A DNA stretch of 32,000 nucleotides from Aeropyrum pernix K1 (GCF_000011125.1 NC_000854.2:1620001-1652000), one strand, 5' to 3'; positions 1 to 25,286 are shown, counted from the stretch's first letter. The notes: generated by a model not told the origin, from the letters alone. Numbers and translations are program-made.

Positions 1-145
1 CGCCTACACGGTACACCCACTCCCTTATCGAGCTGGAGAGGCTAGGCCTACCAGGCTTGGGGCTACAGTTCCCCGCGATTTCCTCTAACAGGGAGGTCCT
101 GTCCTTCGCACTGGCTATTGCCTTCTGCAGGAAGCTATCTCTCAC
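1..145 (-). CDS. trpC: Partial CDS (N-terminus only; runs off the left edge), probable indole-3-glycerol-phosphate synthase
   Basis: Not in the ORF track because it is truncated. GTG at 145-143 overlaps the trpF stop as GTGA. The frame stays open to base 1 and reads VRDSFLQKAIASAKDRTSLLEEIAGNCSPKPGRPSLSSSIREWVYRVG. This resembles the TrpC N-terminal helix and RPS(F/L) segment, and the gene sits last in the trpA-B-F operon. Confidence 0.4.
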   Translation of the reverse strand, partial: MRDSFLQKAIASAKDRTSLLEEIAGNCSPKPGRPSLSSSIREWVYRVG

Positions 146-789
146 GAACTACACCTCTTAGCGCCCATGATAAGCTCTGCGGATAAGAGTGGGTCTTTAA
201 CGCCGGGCACTCCTGTCTCAACGCCTCTACTCACATCTATCAGTGAAACCCCTGTTTCCACAGCCTTGCATGCGTCTCTTGGAGTTAATCCTCCGGCTAG
301 CCCCACTCGGTGGCTGCATCTGGACGCTTTTGCTGCCTCGTTGAGAGGGATTCTGTCTCTCAAACCCTTAGTAGTGTCGAGTAGGATGTACTCTGGCTCC
401 ACTCCCTCTTTGTTTAGCTCATTTATGTAGCCACAGGGCTCCTGAGGCTTCCAAGCGGAGCCAGTGTACTCGACCACGACTGCCAGGGTGACTCCTAGAG
501 GGTCTAATGTAGCCTGGAGGCTGGCAGCCGATGAGGGGAGAAGGGGCTCGTGGTACTGTAGTACGTCGAAGCCGTCTGCGGCTGCGGCTGCATAGCTGGG
601 CGAAGACCCGTGGACTACTAGGACGGTCTTGCTCTTCTCGATTTGAGAAGCCATGATTCTGGCCGCCTCCAGGGGAACACTCCTCGGGCCTCCCAGGAGG
701 CTGTGCACGAACCCGATGTAGTCAACCAGCCCGTCGAGCTGCAGTGCAGACTCTAGCTTTTTGACCCCGCATATCTTCACTTTCACCAC
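142..789 (-). CDS. trpF: Phosphoribosylanthranilate isomerase
   Basis: 215 aa. N-terminus VKVKICGV is typical of PRAI (KICG motif). GTG start overlaps the trpB stop (GTGGTGA). Operon context. Confidence 0.85.
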   Translation of the reverse strand: MVKVKICGVKKLESALQLDGLVDYIGFVHSLLGGPRSVPLEAARIMASQIEKSKTVLVVHGSSPSYAAAAADGFDVLQYHEPLLPSSAASLQATLDPLGVTLAVVVEYTGSAWKPQEPCGYINELNKEGVEPEYILLDTTKGLRDRIPLNEAAKASRCSHRVGLAGGLTPRDACKAVETGVSLIDVSRGVETGVPGVKDPLLSAELIMGAKRCSS

Positions 790-2066
790 ATAGAAGCACC
801 TCTTATCTCTAAAGCCTTCTGAAGGGCGTCCAGATCTAGGAGGCCGTGGCCGCTAAGGTTAAACGCGACTACAGAACCATCAGGCAGTTTTCTAGCGATT
901 CTGGCAGCCAACGCGACGGCATGGCTGCTCTCAGGGGCTGGGACCACCCCCTCACTCCGCGCCATAAGCAGTATTGACGCGAGAGCCTCCTCTTGGGGTA
1001 TTGCTTCCGCCTCAACCAGGCCGAGACGGCGTAGGATGCTGAGGCTCGGGGACACCCCGTGGTAGCGGAGGCCCGCTGCGTGGCTGGGAGGTGGAGTGTA
1101 GCGGTGTCCTAGAGTGTACATCTTCGCTAGGGGGAGGATGAGGCTGGAGTCTAGGCCGTCGTACCTGTACTCGCCTCTTGTGAGCTTCGGCGCGGCGGTG
1201 CTCTCAGCCGCTATGAACCTTGTCTTCTCAAAGCCTTCGCCCCTGAGCCGGGCCCCTATCATGGGGTATGTGAAGCCTCCAAAGTTGCTGCCCCCTCCCA
1301 CACACGCTACAACAACGTCAGGCTCCTCGGGGAGCTGATCCAGAGCCTCTAAGCCTATGACGGTCTGGTGCATAAGGACTGCCTCCAGCACGCTCCCAGG
1401 TAGGTAGCGTCGGTCCCCTGATTCCAGGGTGTACTCCACAGCCTCTGCTATAGCAAGGCCAAGGCTACCCGGGTGGGTGCTACCATACTCCTCCAAGGCC
1501 TCCCTGCCTGTGTCAGTAAGCTTGCTCGGGCTAGAGATCACTCTAGCGCCCTGGGCCTCCATGAGAAGTCTCCTCTGGATCTTCGACTTGAAGCTGCTGG
1601 CAGTCATGAACACTGTAGCCTTCAAACCCATTAATGCTGCGGCAGTGGAGGCCGCTAACCCCCATTGGCCTGCTCCAGTTTCTGTCACAATCTCTTTAGC
1701 TCCGTCTAGCTTAGCGTAATAGGCCTGGGCTATGGCCGTGTTAATCTTGTGGCTCCCCGTAGGTAGAACGGCCTCACTCTTATAATATATCCGAACCCTA
1801 CCTTTCACCCCGAGGACCTTCTCCAGCCCTTCGGCCCTGATGAGAGGGGTAGGCCTGCCAATCCTGGCTAGTGCCTTCCTCACCTCGCCGGGAATGTCAA
1901 CCCACCTCGCCAGGATGTACTCATCCTCTATCAACCTAGACGGCAGGATCCTCGAGAGGAGAGCGATCCTACTCTCCTCCCGCAACCCCTCGGGATCCCT
2001 TAAAGGAGGCAGCGGCTCCGGCAGGTCGGCGGCAATATTATACCATCTAAGGGGAACTGACACCAT
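783..2066 (-). CDS. trpB: Tryptophan synthase beta chain, TrpB2 (TrpEb_2) type
   Basis: 427 aa. Long N-terminus WYNIAADLPEPLPPLRDPEG, then GRPTPL, PTGSHKINTA (PLP lysine), TETGAGQWG, GGGSNFGG and NLSGHGLLDL. This closely matches remembered Sulfolobus TrpB2 sequences rather than the TrpB1 FGGxYVPE type. Confidence 0.95.
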   Translation of the reverse strand: MVSVPLRWYNIAADLPEPLPPLRDPEGLREESRIALLSRILPSRLIEDEYILARWVDIPGEVRKALARIGRPTPLIRAEGLEKVLGVKGRVRIYYKSEAVLPTGSHKINTAIAQAYYAKLDGAKEIVTETGAGQWGLAASTAAALMGLKATVFMTASSFKSKIQRRLLMEAQGARVISSPSKLTDTGREALEEYGSTHPGSLGLAIAEAVEYTLESGDRRYLPGSVLEAVLMHQTVIGLEALDQLPEEPDVVVACVGGGSNFGGFTYPMIGARLRGEGFEKTRFIAAESTAAPKLTRGEYRYDGLDSSLILPLAKMYTLGHRYTPPPSHAAGLRYHGVSPSLSILRRLGLVEAEAIPQEEALASILLMARSEGVVPAPESSHAVALAARIARKLPDGSVVAFNLSGHGLLDLDALQKALEIRGASMW

Positions 2067-2071
2067 CTCCT

Positions 2072-2830
2072 CTAGCCACCTCTCTCACTTATGGCTGCGC
2101 GTATGCTACAGGCTAAGTGGCGAGCCTCCCCTAGCCTGCCGGACGAGACTAGGCGTGCAACTTCTGATCCCACAACGACGGCGTCTGCACCCGCCTCTAG
2201 GACCCTTAGAGCGTCTTCAGGGCTTTTGATGCTGAAGCCGGCTAGCATGTACACCTGCCCAACTATCTTCCTAGCAGTCTTCACGTTGCGCAGAAAGGCT
2301 AGTGGCAGCTTCACCCCTGTAGCTGGCTGAAGGCCCAGGTATATGAGGAGAGGGTCCAGTCTCCTATACCTGTCTAGCCAGCGGTGTGGGAATTTGGGTG
2401 AGGCGAAGAGACTCGGTTCCATGCCGAGCCGCCTAGACTCCTCAACGTACCATTCCACATGGCCAGGCAGCTCGAAGGGGAGGTCCGGAGGGAGAACGCT
2501 TAATGCCCCTTTTCTGGAAGCTTCCCTCAGTACTTCGCTGAAGCTCCACGGCTGTTCGGTGGCGTAGGCCATCACTATATATGGGACTCCGGCCTCTTGA
2601 GAAGCCTCCTCGGCTAGGCTGAGGGTTTTTGGCCCTGAGTAGCCGGACTCGACTGCTTTGAGGTGTGTGAGCCTTATGGTAGGCCCGTCGTAGAGCGGCT
2701 TGGGCGTGGGTATTCCTAGCTCCAGATAGTCTACACAACCTTTCAGGGTCGAGGCGATCTCGAGGAACGTGTCGGGGCTAGGCCAGGCTATTGTGAGGTA
2801 CACTGAAAAGCCGGGCCTAGCTATAGCCAT
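2072..2830 (-). CDS. trpA: Tryptophan synthase alpha chain
   Basis: 252 aa. [17 protein letters not shown] matches the TrpA ELGxPFSDPxADGPxIQ motif. C-terminal GFSI...VVVGS segment. GGTGA Shine-Dalgarno box 10 nt upstream of the ATG. Confidence 0.9.
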
Positions 2831-2981
2831 TGGCTCTTCATCACCGGTCCAGCCTCCTCCAGGGGCTCGTTGAATTGGGAACTCGTCACTTTTAAGCTAT
2901 AGCCTATTGGAGATCGGTTGAAAGAGCTTAAATACAGGTCGAGGCTGCTAGTTGTAGAATTGTGGTGAGAGAAATGAGCCA
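2831..2981. promoter_or_regulatory. Bidirectional trp promoter/leader region
   Basis: 151-bp divergent intergenic region. TATA-like AGCTTAAAAG (minus sense, about 2889-2901) and AGCTTAAATA (plus sense, 2925-2934). Shine-Dalgarno boxes GGAGGAGG/GGTGA on the trpA side and GGTGA at 2964-2968 on the trpD side. Repeated elements are described in the findings. Confidence 0.5.
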
Positions 2982-4019
2982 ATGGTAAATAGTTTTGAAA
3001 AGTCTCGCTTCCTCCTTGTTAAAAAGCTCCTTGAAGGCGAGCCTCTGACCCCTGGGGAGGCCGCTCAACTTGCCCAAGCCATGCTCGACCCCTCCTTCGA
3101 CAACTCCCTCAAAGCAGCCGCCTTAGCGGCATTGAGGGTTAGAGGCGAGCAGCCTGGCGAGGTTGTAGGGTTTGCAAGGGCTCTTAGGGATAGAGCTGTT
3201 AGAGTTGAGTACGGTGGCGAGGTACTCTTGGATACCGCTGGCACCGGAGGCGACGGACTGAGCACACTCAACGCCAGCACTGCTGCTGCGCTGGTAGCGG
3301 CGAGCCTAGGGGTGCCGACAGCTAAGCACGGGAACAGGAGTTTCTCAAGCAAGAGCGGAAGCGCCGATGTAATGGAGATGCTGGGCTACAATATAAATCA
3401 TAGGGCTGATAGGGCTGTCAGAATGCTTTCTACACTGGGTTTCACCTTCCTCTATGCCCCGAACTATCACCCTGCTATGAAGGCTGTGGTGCCTGTAAGG
3501 AGAAAGCTCGCTACGCGAACGATATTTAACCTAGTGGGCCCGTTAGCAAACCCTGCCTTCAACAACGTTCAGGTGATAGGTGTTGCTAGGAGGAGCCTAA
3601 TGCCAGTTATTGCAAGTGCAGCATCGCTCCTAGGCTATGATGCAGTCCTTGTCGTTCATGGAGACCCCGGGATGGATGAGGTAAGTGTTACGGGAGAGAC
3701 CAAAATCCTGGAGGTTAGGAGGGGTAGGATAGAAGAGTATAGTATTACGCCCGAAGACCTGGGCCTGCCTATAACAGGTTTGAAGGAGCTTAGAGTCGCA
3801 AACGCTGTTGAGAGTGCAGAGAGGGTTAGGAGAGCCCTCTCCGGTAGGGGCAGGAGGAGTGATGAGGCTTTTATAGCTGCTAACGCTGCGGCAGCTCTCT
3901 ATGTCGCAGGGTTTGAGAAAGACTTGAAGGGTGCTGCAGAGGCTGCAGTACAGGCTATAAGAGAGGGCAGGCCTGCGGCACTGCTGGAGAAGGCTGTCAA
4001 GGCCTCCCTGGGGATGTGA
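2982..4019 (+). CDS. trpD: Anthranilate phosphoribosyltransferase
   Basis: 345 aa. DTAGTGGDG (GTGGD motif), KHGNRSFSSKSGSADV, NLVGPLANP. Confidence 0.95.
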   Translation: MVNSFEKSRFLLVKKLLEGEPLTPGEAAQLAQAMLDPSFDNSLKAAALAALRVRGEQPGEVVGFARALRDRAVRVEYGGEVLLDTAGTGGDGLSTLNASTAAALVAASLGVPTAKHGNRSFSSKSGSADVMEMLGYNINHRADRAVRMLSTLGFTFLYAPNYHPAMKAVVPVRRKLATRTIFNLVGPLANPAFNNVQVIGVARRSLMPVIASAASLLGYDAVLVVHGDPGMDEVSVTGETKILEVRRGRIEEYSITPEDLGLPITGLKELRVANAVESAERVRRALSGRGRRSDEAFIAANAAAALYVAGFEKDLKGAAEAAVQAIREGRPAALLEKAVKASLGM

Positions 4020-4022
4020 GAT

Positions 4023-5339
4023 TTGCCTTCACCCCCAGAGCCTCCCCTCCACTGGAGGGACTGTAGGCTAGAGCCTATCCTAGGATTTCCTAGGCCTAGG
4101 GAGCTAGCCAAGTCACTTGAAGTCCAGGGGGAGGAGTGGATAGCACTCCTTGAGAGTGGGGGAGGCCTACAGCATAGGAGCAGGTACTCTTTCCTAGCGT
4201 GGGGCAGGAGAAAGTCGAGTGAAACAGACGCTATCAGGGCGTATGAGGAACTCGAGCGCTTAGCGGACGATAAGTGCAGGGCGCTGCCTTGCCGCAGCCC
4301 CACGTTCTTTCTGGTATCCTATGAGGCTGTTGTCGGTGAGGAGCCGTGGCTATCGCGGCTGGTTGGTAGGCATGAGTGGCCAGGTATGACAGCCTTCTCC
4401 CCTGAATATGTTGTAGTCTACGATCACGCAGGGGGAAGGGTGTCGGTTTGCCCAGGTGACACCCCCCTTCCGGCGCCGGCGAGTAGGAAAGAGAGTTTCT
4501 CGGCGGAAGGCCCTACCTATGAGACCTCCAGGAAAGGGTTCGAAGCTATGGTCGCTGACGCGTTGGAGAGGATCAGGGCTGGAGAGGCTTTCCAGGTAGT
4601 GTTATCCAGGGTTGAGAGGTATAGGGTCTGGGGGAGCCTGTTTAGCGCGTATGAGAGGCTCGCCGATGCCAACCCTAGTCCCTACCTATACTACGCTAGG
4701 CTGGGCGGCAGGGTTATCATAGGGAGTAGCCCGGAGCTCCTGGTCAAGCTGGAGGCGGGCAGAGTTGAGACTCACCCGATAGCTGGTACCAGGCCTCGCG
4801 GCTCAACGCCCATTGAGGACATCGAGTTAGAAGTAGAGTTGTTGAACGACGAGAAGGAGAGGGCAGAGCATGTGATGCTTGTTGACCTGGCTAGGAACGA
4901 TATAACCCGTGTATCGATCCCTGGAACCGTACAGGTAACAAGCTTCATGGATATCGAGAGATACGAGACTGTAATGCATATAGTAAGCAGGGTTGAAGGA
5001 GTGACAAGGCCCAGCACCACATTCGTCGAAGCCCTTAAAGCCCTCCACCCTGCAGGCACGGTTAGCGGAGCGCCAAAGCCTAGGGCCATGGAAATTATAG
5101 CCGAACTAGAGGAAGAGGCCAGGGGCCCCTACGCAGGAGCCATAGGAGTAGCGGGTTCTAGCGCGGGCGAGGCGGCCATAGTGCTGAGGAGCGCCTGGCT
5201 CCTAGATGACGGGGAGACCTTGGAAGCTAGAGCTGGCGCCGGGATAGTCTATGATAGCAAGCCCGAGAGAGAGTACATGGAGACTGTCCAGAAACTCGGA
5301 AGCCTAAAGAGGGCTCTGGGGGTGGATATGTGTGGCTGA
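4023..5339 (+). CDS. trpE: Anthranilate synthase component I
   Basis: 438 aa. TTG start 3 nt after the trpD stop. SSPELLV, IAGTRPRG, EKERAEHVMLVDLARND, HPAGTVSGAPKPRAMEII, RGPYAGAIG. Confidence 0.95.
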   Translation: MPSPPEPPLHWRDCRLEPILGFPRPRELAKSLEVQGEEWIALLESGGGLQHRSRYSFLAWGRRKSSETDAIRAYEELERLADDKCRALPCRSPTFFLVSYEAVVGEEPWLSRLVGRHEWPGMTAFSPEYVVVYDHAGGRVSVCPGDTPLPAPASRKESFSAEGPTYETSRKGFEAMVADALERIRAGEAFQVVLSRVERYRVWGSLFSAYERLADANPSPYLYYARLGGRVIIGSSPELLVKLEAGRVETHPIAGTRPRGSTPIEDIELEVELLNDEKERAEHVMLVDLARNDITRVSIPGTVQVTSFMDIERYETVMHIVSRVEGVTRPSTTFVEALKALHPAGTVSGAPKPRAMEIIAELEEEARGPYAGAIGVAGSSAGEAAIVLRSAWLLDDGETLEARAGAGIVYDSKPEREYMETVQKLGSLKRALGVDMCG

Positions 5340-5922
5340 CACGAAGGTGCTGGTCATAGACAACTACGATAGCTTCGTTTACAACATTGTAGATGTGCTG
5401 GCGAGGCTCGGAGCCGAGAGTATAGTGCTTAGAAATGATGAGGTGTCACCTAAAATCGCCAGGAGGCTGAAACCGGATAGAATTGTGATAAGCCCCGGAC
5501 CCGGGAACCCGTTAAACCCTCGTGATTCCGGCAGAGCGCCTGATATAGTGAGGGAGATGGCGAGGAACACTCCCGTCCTGGGCATCTGCCTCGGCCACCA
5601 AATCATCGGGCTCCTATATGGCGCGAAGGTAGAGAGGGCTCCCAAACCAATGCATGGGAAGACTAGTCCTGTGGAACACTACGGTCACAAGCTATACAGA
5701 GGAGTCCCTAGGGTGTTCCAGGCTATGCGCTACCACAGCCTAGCAGTATACGACCCTCCCGAGGAACTACAAGTCGATAGCGTCAGTTTGGACGACAAGG
5801 TAATCATGGGTATAAGCCACGCCGAGTTACCTGTCTACGGAGTCCAATTCCACCCCGAAAGCATAGGCACCCCCCACGGAGAGGTCATAGTGAGAAACTT
5901 CCTAGACGATCCCTGGCCGTGA
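5332..5922 (+). CDS. trpG: Anthranilate synthase component II (glutamine amidotransferase)
   Basis: 196 aa. GTG start overlaps the trpE end by 8 nt. VIDNYDSFVYNIV, ISPGPGNP, GICLGHQ (catalytic Cys), VQFHPES. Confidence 0.95.
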   Translation: MADTKVLVIDNYDSFVYNIVDVLARLGAESIVLRNDEVSPKIARRLKPDRIVISPGPGNPLNPRDSGRAPDIVREMARNTPVLGICLGHQIIGLLYGAKVERAPKPMHGKTSPVEHYGHKLYRGVPRVFQAMRYHSLAVYDPPEELQVDSVSLDDKVIMGISHAELPVYGVQFHPESIGTPHGEVIVRNFLDDPWP

Positions 5923-6091: not shown

Positions 6092-9000
6092 CTAGCGAAC
6101 GGCAAATCTTATGTCCTTGAACGTAACTTTCTTTATAATCGTCTCGTCAGCCCTGCCTATCTTCCTCAGATTTGCTAGGGTGAGCTTGTAGTCGGGGTTC
6201 TGTGCTGCCGGGTCAACGCTTGGCGTCGTTACAGCGTTTGCACCTACCGCTTTCGGATGGGCCATTATGAGGAATATCGTGCCCGGCGCTACCACCCTCG
6301 TTACCCATACCATGGCTGTCGTGGAACCATAGTCGTTATAGATTACAACTATGTCGCCGTTCTCAAGACCTTCCTTCGCAGCGTCCTCCGGGTTGACCTG
6401 GACGATGTTCATCGGGTGTCTAGCCATAATTTCTACGACGTTGGGGTCTGCATAGCCTGTCTGCCATATAGCGTTGTACCTACCGTTGACAACCCAGTAC
6501 TTATAGCCCTTCCTTATCAGCTCGTCCACATACGGCGGGTACTTATCCCATACTGCTGGCCACGGTTTTAGGTGGCCTGGGACGTAGCTTCTAACAGTCT
6601 CGTTGGAAGGTACGACTTCGATCCTCCTGACTATGGTGCCGTCTGGCTTCACAACAACCACTTCCTCCCGGTAGGTGTCGTTTAGGGCGGGCTCCATGAT
6701 GTTTACCACTCCTCTGACCTCGATTGTGCCGTCTGGCTTCACGTCTAGCTTAGTTATCGGCAGTACGGTGCCGATGGTCCTGAGCTTCCTCAGTATGTTC
6801 AGGTCGAGCTTCTTGAACTCCGGCGTCCAGTACTGGACCTCCCAGTGGACTCCCAGCCTTGCATAGGCTTCGTCGGCGTTGGCTATGTAGGTTTTGAAGA
6901 TCTCGTTCTCAACCTCAACCGTCGGATCCCTAGCGTTGGCTTCCATGGCGTCCCATATAGGCTTAAAGGCCTTTCTGAACCTCTCTGCGACTGGGTCGCC
7001 ACCTCTACCCTCTTCTTCGTATAGCTCGACTATCCTCTTAGCTACGTTCGCGAGTATCCACCAGTCGGGCTTAGCCTCTCCCGGCGGGTCGAGCCAGGCG
7101 TCTGCTATCCTGAACCTCCTCTCGTGAACCCCCATTCTGACGTCGGGCCACTCTCCATTGTTGAACGCTGCAGGGAGTACTACGTGGGCGTCTTCAACCA
7201 TGAAGGTCGGGTAGATGTCCTCGACTATGACGAAGAGGCCTCCAGTCTCTTCAAGGGCCTGGAGCACCTTCTCGGCATACTCCCTGGAGGACGGCGGGGT
7301 CGTTATCACCGGCTCCAGAGCATTGGGGTCGTAGTTGGGCTCCGACTCTTTCCCTCCCACGTTGGCGTAGGCTTCGGCGAACACATACCTTGTTACCCTC
7401 CATGCCCTATCTCCCACGACTGCCTTGAGCCTCTGGGAGTTAGGCGCGAGCCTGTAGTTGTCCATGTCAATGACCCAGAGAACCTTACCCTCACCGTTAG
7501 CCAGCCTGAAATCAGTTGTTGGCATGTAGAAGTCGGCTCTCGGGTATTTCGTGTTATAGTACTCGTCGTAGAGGCTCTTGTCCGGATAAGCTATGTGATG
7601 CCTCTCATCGGTCCATGGCGGTGGTGGGGGCGCTGGGCTGGCGAAGCCCTCCTGGTGCCCTCCCTGCCTCTGGCAGCCACATCCCGGGAGACCTCTCGTT
7701 GCTCCAGCTATCATGCATAGGTCGAATAGGCTGTAGATGGATCTGTAGTTCTGGTTCCATATTATCCCCTTCTCGTACATTAACCATACTCTCTTGGGGT
7801 ATCCTCCCTCCTTCCTCTCGGCTATCCATTTGGCGGCTAGTTCTATCTTGTCCCTCGGCACTCCTGTTATGCTCTCGGCCTCGGCGAGGACCTCATCCAA
7901 CGTCTCCTCGCCGACCTGTAGCGCCTCCGAAACATACTTCTGGAAGCCCTCCTCATCCCATTTGAACCCCCAGCCGGCAGCTGATCTATAGTGGTTGACA
8001 AACTCCTCCACAACATCACCGTATCTCTCGTAAATGACTCTGGCTATCGCGTTCGCGAGCACTATGTCAGTGCCCGGCTTCACCTGAAGGTGCAACACCC
8101 TGTCCTTACCCGCGGCAGCTTCAGCTGCTTCAACAGTCTCCGTCCTCCTCGGATCAACAATTATTATCCTACTATCTATCACGGGCTCTCCGGGGTTAAA
8201 CCACCTCTGCTTCTCAGCCTTGGTGGCGCCCCTTAGATTGTCGAGGACGTGTTTCACGAACATGACAGTCGCAGTGGAGTAGGGATTATTACCCCACAGT
8301 ATTATCGTGTCGGCAAGCCTGAGGTCGTGGTAGGAGGTATTCATGGCGCCGGGTCCTGCATCGCCTGCCGCAGGGTTCTCGGGCCCGAAGAAGGGCCGGT
8401 TATGTATTCTGGCGAATGCTGTTCTCACGCCGTAGAAGAAGAACAGGCCGACGACTGTGTTGAAGATCATACCGCCACCGCCGCCGCCACCGTGGTCCAT
8501 ACGGTGGGCGAAGACTGCGTGCCCTTCCTTACCCCACCCTGGCCTCTCTATCCCCCACTTGTCGATAACTCCCTTGACAACCCTTGCAACAAGGTCTATA
8601 GCATACTCCCAGGAAACGGGCTCTAGCCTCCCACCGAACCTGACCAGGGGCTTAGTGAGCCTCCTCTCCCCAGCGATGTTCCAGGGGCTCCATATCCTCT
8701 CTGCCTGGGTACCGCCTCTCACCGAGTGGTTGCCCCAGTTTATGGGGCACTCGGGGCTCGGAACCTGCGCGACGTAAACCTCCCTCCAGCCTCCTGTCCC
8801 TCTACCCCTCTCCCAGGTTCTCCTTATCGTCTTGACTACCATAGCCTCGGATATCCAGGGCTCACCCTCCTCGGCGCTGAGGCCTGTGTGCTCCTTTGTG
8901 AAGTCGGGCTGCTTTACCAGGTTCCTCCCGTAAGCCTCGTCGACTATCTTATACTCTATACCGTGTCCACCTGGCTCCGGGGACCCCTCAGCACCGGCGG

Positions 9001-9115
9001 GCCATACGTACACATCGTAGCCGCAGCCCACGTTGCAGAACTGGCACATAGTTGTGTAGTGCTGGGCCCCCTTTGGGGGTAGAGGTACTCTCCCCATCCT
9101 CGGGTAGACCATCAC
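6092..9115 (-). CDS. aioA: Arsenite oxidase-type molybdopterin oxidoreductase, large subunit
   Basis: 1007 aa with a collinear match to remembered Alcaligenes faecalis AioA. Matching segments: [28 protein letters not shown] (C-x2-C-x3-C, 3Fe-4S type), [91 protein letters not shown]. No signal peptide of its own. GTGATG start overlaps the aioB stop. Confidence 0.9.
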   Translation of the reverse strand: [1007 protein letters not shown]

Positions 9116-9744
9116 GCCTTCACCCCCTGCAGGTTGTCGTAACGGCCGTACACTAGGGCCGTGAAACCGACTGCAAAAATGTCGCCCGAGGCCTCGTCAT
9201 ACTCAAGGATAACCTGTGGTAGATATTCGGTCGCGTGGCCTACCACAGGCTGTCCACCCCTAGACGGGTCGAACTGGGAGAAGTGTAGGGGGCAAATCAA
9301 TGTCTTTGTGTTACCGTCGAATATGAGGAAACCGCCCATGTGGGTGCATAGCATGCTGAAAGCTACAATATCCTTGTCAGGCCCGACACCGTTGACAGCC
9401 TCCTCCCCAAGCTTTATAACTACAATCCTATGGCCAATGTACTCCTTGAAAACAGGCTGCCCCTCCCTGAGCTCGCTAACGTTTGCAATCTTAACCTTGG
9501 GATACTTTTTCTCCACAAGCTGAACCTGAGTTTGGGTCTCAGTGACAGTAGCAGTCTCAGTCGCGGTGGCCGTGACAGTCTGCGTCGGCCCAGGCTTCAC
9601 AACCTCCTTTTCCCTCGGGAATGCAGTGCTCCCTACAACAGCTCCCACTATGAATGCAGCGGCGCCAGCACCAGCAGCGGCAAGAAATTCTCTCCTGGTT
9701 ATACGTAGACCCTTATCTTCCCCACCATTATCACTCCTGGACAC
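9112..9744 (-). CDS. aioB: Arsenite oxidase-type Rieske [2Fe-2S] small subunit with Tat signal/anchor
   Basis: 210 aa. Twin-arginine motif ITRREFLAAAGAGAAAF. Thr/Val/Ala/Glu-rich linker. Rieske boxes CTHMGG and CPLHFSQF. GTG start preceded by AAGGAGGGTGA. Confidence 0.85.
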   Translation of the reverse strand: MSRSDNGGEDKGLRITRREFLAAAGAGAAAFIVGAVVGSTAFPREKEVVKPGPTQTVTATATETATVTETQTQVQLVEKKYPKVKIANVSELREGQPVFKEYIGHRIVVIKLGEEAVNGVGPDKDIVAFSMLCTHMGGFLIFDGNTKTLICPLHFSQFDPSRGGQPVVGHATEYLPQVILEYDEASGDIFAVGFTALVYGRYDNLQGVKA

Positions 9745-10098: not shown

Positions 10099-10731
10099 TC
10101 AACCCTTAAGCCTACCTTTGTCTAAATTTAGTTTGAAATAGGCTTCAGCGCATCTCTCGTTGTGAAACACGAGGATCCTACCGTCGTCCAGCACAACAGT
10201 ATATGGCCTACCGACTATAATGCTCTGGCAGAAGGAGCATTTAGCTTGAACTTTTGTAAGTGGTTTCTCAGGTACCCAGGGCTCGTCTCCAACTTCCCTG
10301 TCGATGAATATTGTGTTTTCAACCTGGAAGCCTGCCTTCTCAATTCTTCTTACAATCTCGTCAACACCTCCAGGATCTAGAGTTCTTGCTAGCACTGCCC
10401 CGAAACCTCGCTTAGACGAGTAGAAGATCCTTTCTATCTCGCTGGATTTGACGGCGGAGATGTCTGTATTGCCGTCCTCGCCCTCTGGAGCCTGGAATAG
10501 TATTAGGTAGGTTAGGGCTCCGAGGACCTCGGGGTCTATTGAAGCCTTACAGCCTTTAATGACGCCCAGCGCCTTTAACCTCCTTATTCTTTTCCTCACG
10601 TTTGGAACGCTGACCCCTACGGCTTGGGATATTTTGTTAATGGCTGTGGTACAGTCATTGGCAAGTATTCTCAAAATCTCAATGTCGATTGCATCGATCC
10701 CCCGTGATCTTAGGCTCAATATGTCACCCAC
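10099..10731 (-). CDS. Lrp/AsnC-family transcriptional regulator fused to a C-terminal TRASH-like C2HC domain
   Basis: 210 aa. N-terminal HTH_AsnC pattern IDIEILRILANDCTTAINKISQAVGVSVPNVRKRIRRLKALGVIKG. Central RAM-like domain. C-terminus CSFC-x21-H-x3-C-AEAYF fits the TRASH/L24e-type pattern. An alternative TTG start at 10719 has GGTGA 4 nt upstream. Confidence 0.8.
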   Translation of the reverse strand: MGDILSLRSRGIDAIDIEILRILANDCTTAINKISQAVGVSVPNVRKRIRRLKALGVIKGCKASIDPEVLGALTYLILFQAPEGEDGNTDISAVKSSEIERIFYSSKRGFGAVLARTLDPGGVDEIVRRIEKAGFQVENTIFIDREVGDEPWVPEKPLTKVQAKCSFCQSIIVGRPYTVVLDDGRILVFHNERCAEAYFKLNLDKGRLKG

Positions 10732-25146: not shown

Positions 25147-25286
25147 AGCGTTAAGACGCTGCCTGGCCGTCGATGCTTAACCTGCTATAAACGTGCATCA
25201 GGGGTAGAGTCTGCATCAATCAGAACCATTGGTTGCCGGTGAGGACCTCAAAGGGAGACGACTCGCCTGCGACCACCTGTGTCTGC

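Follow-up and report, generated by a model that had tools for sequence, protein, structure and literature searches.

A mini open reading frame with a Trp codon overlaps the start codons of trp operons in Aeropyrum pernix and related Thermoprotei and may act as a translational sensor of charged tRNA-Trp

In trpL-type attenuation, as found in E. coli and at actinobacterial trpE leaders, a short 5' open reading frame (ORF) driven by a Shine-Dalgarno (SD) sequence contains the cognate Trp codons, and the position of the ribosome reports tRNA charging; classical leader peptides carry two or more Trp codons. In Bacillus, TRAP blocks the trpG and trpP start regions, and its target consists of 9-11 (G/U)AG triplets spaced by 2-3 nucleotides (nt). 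Control of archaeal trp operons has been described for TrpY of Methanothermobacter, which acts in a divergent intergenic region, and for Tar (TK0271) of Thermococcus. Homologues of Tar and TrpY are almost entirely absent from Crenarchaeota, for which 'a third regulator or mechanism' has been proposed (PMC6737238). Here we analysed a 32,000-nt stretch of the Aeropyrum pernix K1 genome (NC_000854.2:1620001-1652000, referred to as the window), in which two divergent trp transcription units each begin with a mini upstream ORF (uORF) whose Trp codon lies on the start codon of the first trp gene. By analogy, this element would work most like a leader-peptide attenuator, but it lacks the alternative hairpins and terminator that define that class, and it possibly shares its logic with recoding sensors of the RF2 type.

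TrpD and TrpA of the window are 100% identical to the K1 proteins. The two units, trpA-B-F on the minus strand and trpD-E-G on the plus strand, are separated by a 151-bp spacer (Table 1). The trpA and trpD ATGs are the earliest starts possible after an in-frame stop, and the N-termini of both proteins align with those of homologues. Both start codons sit in the same register within GAGCCAATGG, found at 2976-2985 (plus) and 2836-2827 (minus); no further exact copy exists in the 32 kb, and the two were scored as inverted repeat I3. On both sides the gene ATG is composed of the final A of the uORF codon CAA and the TG of the uORF codon TGG. The initial annotation had described both uORFs and the shared box and had judged the common 10-mer to exceed chance. 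Direct reading of the sequence confirmed every coordinate. Among the 351 start pairs formed by 27 window ORFs (longest-ORF starts), a 10-nt identical stretch across the start codon is shared by trpA/trpD alone, the runner-up being 7 nt in three pairs; this bears out the judgement about chance within the window, and the preservation of the architecture in relatives is the decisive evidence. Further CCAATGG copies of the window, at 25232 (minus) and 1668 (minus), occur at chance frequency away from gene starts and were discarded. The former (25226-25232, minus, within the intergenic region 25147-25286) opens a 14-codon ORF (ATG GTT CTG ...) that has no uORF/SD arrangement, and its occurrence matches the chance frequency of a 7-mer.

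Across 16 loci we counted 22 trp-operon starts with the same architecture. They span Aeropyrum-like, Pyrodictium and Stetteria lineages and extend to Caldivirga, with TrpA 40-55% identical, and every trp-operon start examined in this clade has the element. The relatives compared, with TrpA or TrpD 40-59% identical to A. pernix, were collected by protein look-ups and one metagenome scan. Their loci are given L-numbers; L023 belongs to an 'Aeropyrum sp.' metagenome-assembled genome (MAG), L028 to Caldivirga maquilingensis and L008/L022 to Pyrolobus fumarii. Relative to the gene ATG, CCAATGG (-3 to +4) is invariant in all 22 instances, with G at -6 in 20 and G at -4 in 18. An in-frame ATG, GTG or TTG at -8, -11, -14 or -20 was found in 21 of the 22, and the same number carry one in-frame TGG in the uORF, never tandem Trp codons. 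The uORF stops at +5 or +8 in 19/22, and T at +8, the first base of the stop, is likewise found in 19/22; such a stop is not present in L006 trpA and L026 trpA, whose uORFs run 15-17 codons, or in L012. Otherwise the uORFs are mostly 4-9 codons long and mostly overlap the first-cistron ATG by 7-10 nt, the overlap reaching 49 nt in L026. The sequence ATGAGCCAATGG is identical on the trpD side of L006, L021, L024, L025 and L026, and trpA uORFs that begin at -11, read CAA TGG and reach their stop at +8 recur in Stetteria, Pyrodictium delaneyi, L009-L011, L021, L023 and L025.

Table 1. Positions of the trp genes, of the uORFs with their boxes and signals in the A. pernix window, and of the corresponding elements in relatives (A. 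pernix positions count from the first letter of the window).
Feature	Position	Strand	Sequence or remarks
trpA (tryptophan synthase alpha)	2072-2830	-	NF009621, 302 bits; first cistron of trpA-B-F
trpB, TrpB2-type	783-2066	-	NCBIfam TIGR01415, 669 bits
trpF	142-789	-	NCBIfam
trpD (anthranilate phosphoribosyltransferase)	2982-4019	+	TIGR01245, 425 bits; first cistron of trpD-E-G
trpE	4023-5339	+	NCBIfam
trpG	5332-5922	+	NCBIfam
trpD-side mini-uORF (MSQW-stop)	2974-2988	+	ATG AGC CAA TGG TAA; ATG 2974-2976, TGG 2983-2985, TAA 2986-2988; trpD ATG 2982-2984; 7-nt overlap with trpD ATG
trpA-side mini-uORF (MKSQWL-stop)	2821-2841	-	ATG AAG AGC CAA TGG CTA TAG; ATG 2841-2839, TGG 2829-2827, TAG 2823-2821; 10-nt overlap with trpA ATG
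Core CCAATGG, trpD side	2979-2985	+	Gln codon CAA + trpD ATG + uORF TGG; extended box G[AC]GCCAATGG 2976-2985
Core CCAATGG, trpA side	2827-2833	-	trpA ATG 2830-2828, TGG 2829-2827; extended box 2836-2827
SD GGTG(A), trpD side	2964-2967	+	6 nt from uORF ATG, 14 nt from trpD ATG
SD region, trpA side	2842-2860	-	GGAGGAGG 2860-2853; GGTG 2845-2842 adjoins uORF ATG
Putative TATA box CTTAAATAC for trpDEG	2927-2935	+	TATA block kept in six divergent loci, 40-49 nt upstream of uORF ATG
Putative TATA box CTTAAAA for trpABF	2890-2896	-	Sequence reading and six-locus alignment
Partial third copy AGCTATAGCC(T)ATTGG	2895-2910	+	Duplicates 2819-2833 with one inserted T; overlaps putative trpA B recognition element (BRE)/TATA
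Partial duplicate, window	2895-2910 vs 2819-2833
Partial duplicate, L021	4050-4059 vs 3949-3958
Partial duplicate, L024	~2853-2865 vs 2741-2755
Partial duplicate, L006	intergenic
Box-ATG leader ORF, L006	4846-5004
Box-ATG leader ORF, L026	3851-3708	-
Box-ATG leader ORF, L021	3960-3862	-
Box-ATG leader ORF, L025	3867-3781	-
trpA uORF, Stetteria hydrogenophila			ATG GAG CGC CAA TGG CTT TGA
trpA uORF, Pyrodictium delaneyi			ATG TCC TGC CAA TGG AGT TAA
trpA uORF, L009			GTG AAG CGC CAA TGG AGT TGA
trpA uORF, L010			TTG GAG CGC CAA TGG CTT TGA
trpA uORF, L011			ATG AAG CGC CAA TGG AGC TGA
trpA uORF, L013			ATG CGC CAA TGG TGA
trpA uORF, L023 ('Aeropyrum sp.' MAG)			ATG CAG CTC CAA TGG GTT TGA
trpA uORF, L021 and L025			ATG GAG AGC CAA TGG AGC TAG
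trpA uORF, L024			ATG GAG AGC CAA TGG TGA
trpA uORF, L027			GTG AAC TCG CCC CAA TGG CCC TAA
trpA uORF, Caldivirga maquilingensis (L028)			ATG AGG GAC GGT AAG CTC CAA TGG GTA TAA
trpA uORF, L006 and L026			ATG CGG/CAG CGC CAA TGG ...; 15-17 codons, ending 40-46 nt past gene ATG
trpD-side uORF, L021, L024, L025			ATG AGC CAA TGG GCA TAG
trpD-side uORF, L006, L026			ATG ATG AGC CAA TGG GGT/AGA TAG

The full pattern was absent from all 100 other called gene starts of the same loci, and CCA at -3 to -1 was likewise found in none of them. These control starts are automatic gene calls, and their sharp SD peak (see below) argues that most are correct. An NTG at -8/-11 occurs in 20% of the control genes because of the SD GGTG. 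Eleven over-extended TrpA database calls (258-276 residues) all have ...P-M-(E/A)-L where the true start lies, indicating that CCA ATG G is present in further genomes. Automatic calls often begin trpA at an upstream in-frame GTG or ATG within the SD region and so add 5-30 spurious residues ending in ...P-M; examples are L004 (2913 vs 2940), a 263-residue Stetteria call and proteins P0123, P0127, P0129, P0131, P0134, P0139, P0157, P0160-P0162 and P0167. In these mis-called genomes the true trpA start is the ATG of CCAATGG. The box is absent in Pyrolobus fumarii (L008 6001; L022 4001), where trpD and trpA are solitary, lie in unrelated neighbourhoods and both start with TTG; operon loss there accompanies uORF loss. 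The box is also absent in the AT-rich, more distant loci L014-L020. No His-codon analogue of the uORF was found at the hisG start of L023, and there is thus no sign of a general amino-acid uORF system. The box could be a coincidence or reflect the generic start-codon context of the genome, since a 10-mer inverted repeat within ~170 bp is not very rare (~0.03 as an order-of-magnitude estimate) and a fifth of the controls have an NTG at the right place. The conservation in 16 loci with TrpA only 40-55% identical, the 0/100 controls and the unique 10-nt run effectively refute this explanation, to which we assign a negligible probability. The box and uORF frame described from A. pernix alone are sustained by the comparison across genomes: box, uORF start, TGG and nearby stop are kept at 22 starts across deeply diverged Thermoprotei.

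The uORF has the properties of a translated frame. Its start codon varies between ATG, GTG and TTG in the close relatives L011, L009 and L010, and the start moves by whole codons only. The early stop is maintained through differing codon pairs of the gene frame (TTG AGC, CTG AGC, TTA AGC, CTA GCN, ATA GCT and GTG ANN); we estimate that only one in about five synonymous choices would create a stop. In the 100 control genes GGTG most often precedes the start by 6-8 nt (44/100), and a gap of 13-17 nt never occurs. At most trp boxes a GGTG is found at a distance of 4-9 nt from the uORF start; its distance to the gene ATG is 11-20 nt, and the ATG of the first trp cistron has no SD of its own. The GGTG is therefore spaced for the uORF start and not for the gene ATG, which argues that ribosomes are loaded on the uORF. 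On the trpA side of A. pernix, GGAGGAGG lies 11 nt from the uORF ATG, corresponding to the control peak for GAGG.

When the six divergent control regions were aligned, the TATA boxes of both units, the TGGTG SD and the pair of boxes were the only sizeable conserved blocks. From the usual archaeal distance between TATA box and start, trpDEG transcription probably begins near 2955-2962, which would place the trpD-side uORF inside a 5' leader of ~12-19 nt; trpABF transcription probably begins near 2866. In Caldivirga maquilingensis (L028, 2953-3010), a TATA box, CTTAAAAATA (2953-2962), is centred ~24 nt upstream of the uORF ATG at 2981. A leaderless mRNA that begins with the uORF is therefore probable; the trpA ATG, 20 nt beyond the uORF ATG, has no SD. 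Leaderless loading in Caldivirga is probably a different mode aimed at the same uORF. Taken from these sequence features, the uORF is very probably translated and gates the operon.

The initial annotation had left open whether the box is read by the ribosome or bound as DNA, and the codon-phased start, its ATG/GTG/TTG variation and the SD spacing favour the translational side. If the box were a DNA operator, the inverted CCAATGG boxes, together with a partial third copy in A. pernix, would bind a repressor of both promoters, for instance as a roadblock or by looping. Such a role would suit the inverted copies that flank a 131-153-bp control region in six loci, the palindromic core, the position of the third copy over the putative trpA TATA/BRE and the partial duplicates in L021, L024 and L006 (combined p ~0.01), and known archaeal trp control is transcriptional (TrpY and Tar; PMC6737238). 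An operator, however, does not need the single-nucleotide register with the start codon (22/22), nor a codon-phased ATG/GTG/TTG start with an SD for it, a stop at +5/+8 or leader ORFs with ATGA/GTGA junctions. Single-operon genomes have one box only, the spacing between paired boxes varies, TrpY/Tar motifs are lacking and the third copy is not conserved. We consider the operator very improbable. The TrpY motif TGTACA and the Tar motif TGGACA-N8-TGTCCA were absent from 2780-3040 on both strands. The present element is comparable to TrpY and Tar as a candidate for archaeal trp operon control, and to TrpY in its divergent intergenic setting, but differs in that those regulators are DNA-binding proteins whose sites are absent here.

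In the intergenic region, the segment after AUGG is partly duplicated in four of the six divergent loci (words AGCTATAGCC, GGGCATAGCC, TGGGCATAG and GGGTTAGC). Shuffle tests of the duplicated words gave 5/500, 9/500, 46/500 and 91/500, and the p value of ~0.01 is their Fisher combination over six loci. The duplicates of L021 and L024 are found at the would-be trpA 5' leader, and their sequence would be the complement of the start region in the trpD-side mRNA. The A. pernix third copy, whose match was reached in 5/500 shuffles, is not kept in the six-locus alignment, and the partial duplicates of other loci occupy non-equivalent places; a three-site operator was rejected on these grounds.

The box ATG starts TrpD directly in A. 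pernix and L024. In L006, L026, L021 and L025 it opens leader ORFs of 52, 47, 32 and 28 codons, which show no sequence conservation past MGIA/MEIA and in all four relatives end in a TGA that forms ATGA or GTGA with the trpD start. Judged by these reading frames, the box ATG is always a working start. Ordinary coupling junctions in the same loci are ATGA/GTGA; the uORF junction never is and always passes through UGG.

Searches of the leaders for known regulatory elements were negative. Rfam (E<=10) gave sub-threshold noise only, with no T-box or riboswitch match. No shared RNA fold was found, the minimum free energy z-scores ranging from -2.8 to +1.2 with structures that differed for each sequence and had 0 to -9 kcal/mol at 85 C, and no runs of five or more T were present in about the first 190 nt. 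A bacterial-type attenuator or riboswitch was rejected accordingly, and the earlier observation that a terminator/antiterminator is lacking holds. In the trpA mRNA (2795-2838, minus), the box sequence UGAAGAGCC could form a stem with GGCUUUUCA in codons 7-9 that encloses the AUG, with -26.9 kcal/mol at 37 C and -1.4 at 85 C; this 9-bp stem is not kept beyond L024 and was judged a by-product of coding. The element shares with trpL the short SD-driven 5' ORF with a cognate Trp codon, on which the ribosome position would report charging. Unlike trpL, it has one Trp codon and not a tandem, it has no terminator/antiterminator hairpins, T-run or conserved fold, and both the uORF and its Trp codon overlap the start of the structural gene and do not form a separate upstream leader. 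The output would be translational, in an archaeal hyperthermophilic host with folding energy near zero at 85 C. No description of an archaeal trp leader or uORF was found in the literature searched.

The UGG is invariant and is the sole Trp codon of the uORF. First-cistron starts are ATG in 22/22, compared with 37% among 84 other called genes, and G at +4 is found in 22/22, compared with 43% of the 100 control starts. TrpA residue 2 varies (A, E, G, V and also D) among codon families beginning with G, a sign that selection acts on the nucleotide, and thereby on UGG. We argue from the invariant ATG and G+4, the avoidance of ATGA and the confinement to trp operons that the Trp codon is meaningful. 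A Trp codon as the hallmark of attenuation, as the initial annotation had it, was over-weighted, since UGG is forced by the frame across AUGG; the ATG and G+4 invariance and the avoidance of ATGA are the better arguments. On balance, these patterns make it somewhat more probable that the element responds to Trp than that it does not.

We propose that the mini-uORF at each trp unit is a gateway that acts as a translational sensor of charged tRNA-Trp, a reading that we hold to be evenly poised given its basis in sequence comparison. Ribosomes would be loaded at the uORF start through the SD GGTG, or at a leaderless 5' end in Caldivirga. They would read ...C CAA UGG and usually stop 0-1 codon later, and the first cistron would be trpA or trpD, or else a short leader ORF that an ATGA/GTGA junction couples to trpD. 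Given loading on the uORF and the TGG on the gene ATG, each ribosome that makes trp enzymes must first meet one Trp codon. With ample Trp-tRNA, UGG would be decoded, termination would occur just past the ATG and a fraction of ribosomes would re-initiate to give basal expression. When Trp-tRNA is scarce, the ribosome would pause while CAA occupies the P site and the A site, positioned over UGG, is empty, and the paused ribosome would be re-phased by one nucleotide onto AUG, giving induction. Re-phasing could proceed by a -1 slip; alternatively, the tetra- or pentapeptidyl-tRNA would drop off and the ribosome restart in place. Start-site occlusion and termination-reinitiation, which had been suggested earlier as ways of sensing Trp, have the wrong sign for a biosynthetic operon, since both predict less trp enzyme when Trp-tRNA is scarce. 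Backward re-initiation is implausible at the L006 and L026 trpA genes, where the long uORFs stop too far downstream. Re-phasing is the only one of these readings that gives induction on starvation.

Two observations speak for re-phasing: the one-nucleotide register is invariant, and the SD lies 9-18 nt upstream of the P-site codon. The range of SD distances that stimulates -1 shifts in bacterial dnaX reportedly overlaps 9-18 nt. Like prfB/RF2 and hungry-codon frameshifting, the element has an SD-initiated short ORF and a useful product one nucleotide away, and its UGG would be the slow codon that acts as sensor. It differs from RF2, where the shift is +1, in that the direction would be -1, the re-pairing is poor and the downstream frame opens with its own AUG, which makes a restart equally plausible; re-initiation there could yield the same enzyme without a shift. 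We know of no archaeal example of an amino-acid-sensing frameshift. We tentatively favour re-phasing as the mechanism but think it doubtful. The complete scheme, in which Trp starvation would be sensed at the start codon and a pause at the hungry UGG re-phased to AUG (giving MKSQ-MAIAR.../MSQ-MVNSF..., or a restart), is slightly more doubtful again.

Several points weigh against Trp sensing by re-phasing. tRNA-Gln moving from CAA to CCA re-pairs at two of three positions (1 and 3), which is poor for a -1 slip and counts against the slip from a hungry UGG that had first been considered; a sequence selected for slippage would more likely read C CCA or A AAA. The conserved early stop fits termination-reinitiation better than frameshifting. 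The UGG is partly forced, as any uORF in that frame crossing AUGG reads UGG, and each uORF has a single Trp codon. Conservation of G-6, G-4 and CC (-3, -2) across codons for S, R, C, L and P is accounted for neither by the peptide nor by the model and could mark the site of a trans-acting factor. The 22 instances share descent, and we judge the effectively independent lineages to number roughly 6-8. The protein searches yielded nothing from A. camini, and a TrpD contig scan gave three distant relatives only (35-42% identity), A. pernix not among them. Finally, the AT-richer locus L012 (TrpA 44% identical; 2470-2510) has TTCCAATGG at the trpA start and no start codon in the TGG frame, and may hold a decayed or remodelled element. 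In L012 an upstream ATG lies instead at -18 in the trpA frame.

The early stop and the single Trp codon raise the alternative of a constitutive gateway, in which the uORF would deliver ribosomes at a fixed low rate to an SD-less cistron by termination-reinitiation, with no Trp sensing and with UGG as a by-product. The geometry agrees with this: overlaps are 7 or 10 nt (3n+1) with the stop at +5/+8 in 19/22, the gene ATG is SD-less and the same loci couple genes downstream by ATGA/GTGA. Coupling with this geometry has been described for archaea, and termination-reinitiation at overlapping genes was reportedly demonstrated in Haloferax and E. coli (PMC6728339). The likeness to such coupling extends to a stop within a few nt of the start. 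The differences are that the upstream ORF is only 4-9 codons long, its peptide is non-functional, the overlap always runs through UGG and two lineages end 40-46 nt downstream. A constitutive gateway leaves unexplained why the element keeps to the starts of trp operons (0/100 controls), why ATGA, the simplest and most efficient overlap, is avoided, and why ATG, G+4 and CCA at -3 to -1 are invariant. It also sits poorly with the late ends of the L006/L026 trpA uORFs, and it would tie the synthesis of trp enzymes to Trp-tRNA. We regard it as rather unlikely.

Conservation at the nucleotide level points to another possibility, that the 10-nt mRNA site G[AC]GCCAAUGG is bound by an RNA-binding protein that responds to Trp and is functionally analogous to TRAP, by tryptophanyl-tRNA synthetase or by tRNA-Trp. 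High Trp would then block initiation, and the uORF would be a delivery device only. Such binding would explain why G-6, G-4, C-3 and C-2 are kept while the residues vary, it would give the correct regulatory sign automatically, and the core is a near-palindrome (CCA-A-UGG) that holds the tRNA-Trp anticodon sequence together with the codon; the blocking of start regions by TRAP in Bacillus is a precedent. Yet no candidate protein gene is conserved beside the operons in the gene lists of the loci, no RNA structure presents the site, a linear site of 8-10 nt is short, TRAP-like repeats and T-box or Rfam matches are absent, and binding alone leaves the conserved early stop unexplained. A TRAP-like array was not found on either side, where 81 nt contain 6-7 irregularly spaced triplets. 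The element resembles TRAP on trpG, trpP and ycbK of Bacillus subtilis as a trp-specific element over the SD and start that would control initiation; it differs in having no (G/U)AG array and no TRAP gene, TRAP being bacterial, and in its coding-frame properties. We consider a trans-acting factor distinctly unlikely.

Other features of the window were also recorded. The window trpB scored 179 bits against the canonical TrpB1 model TIGR00263, under the cut-off. Directly on the 3' side of trpG are genes for a molybdopterin oxidoreductase of 1007 residues with an N-terminal Rieske-type 3Fe-4S domain and a Rieske subunit of 210 residues (6092-9744 and 10099-10731, both minus), a pair that looks like an arsenite oxidase; an AsnC-type helix-turn-helix regulator of 210 residues follows. 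No tRNA genes were found in the 32-kb window.

The finding has an immediate value for annotation, as trpA mis-starts at upstream in-frame GTG or ATG codons can be corrected in many of these genomes. It provides a sequence-defined candidate of ~15-30 nt, kept from Aeropyrum and the Pyrodictiaceae through to Caldivirga, for trp control in Crenarchaeota, where TrpY and Tar are almost entirely absent. If the gateway uORF senses Trp-tRNA, it would be a rare documented case of a regulatory uORF in Archaea and would represent attenuation-like logic there that works without RNA secondary structure, which is sensible at 90-100 C where hairpins melt. Should re-phasing also prove true, Trp-tRNA scarcity would itself shift ribosomes into the trp frame, a structure-free and temperature-proof counterpart of attenuation. 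Archaea would then have their first described switch that senses an amino acid by recoding or restart, one that goes back to an ancestor of much of the Thermoprotei and could be categorically new.

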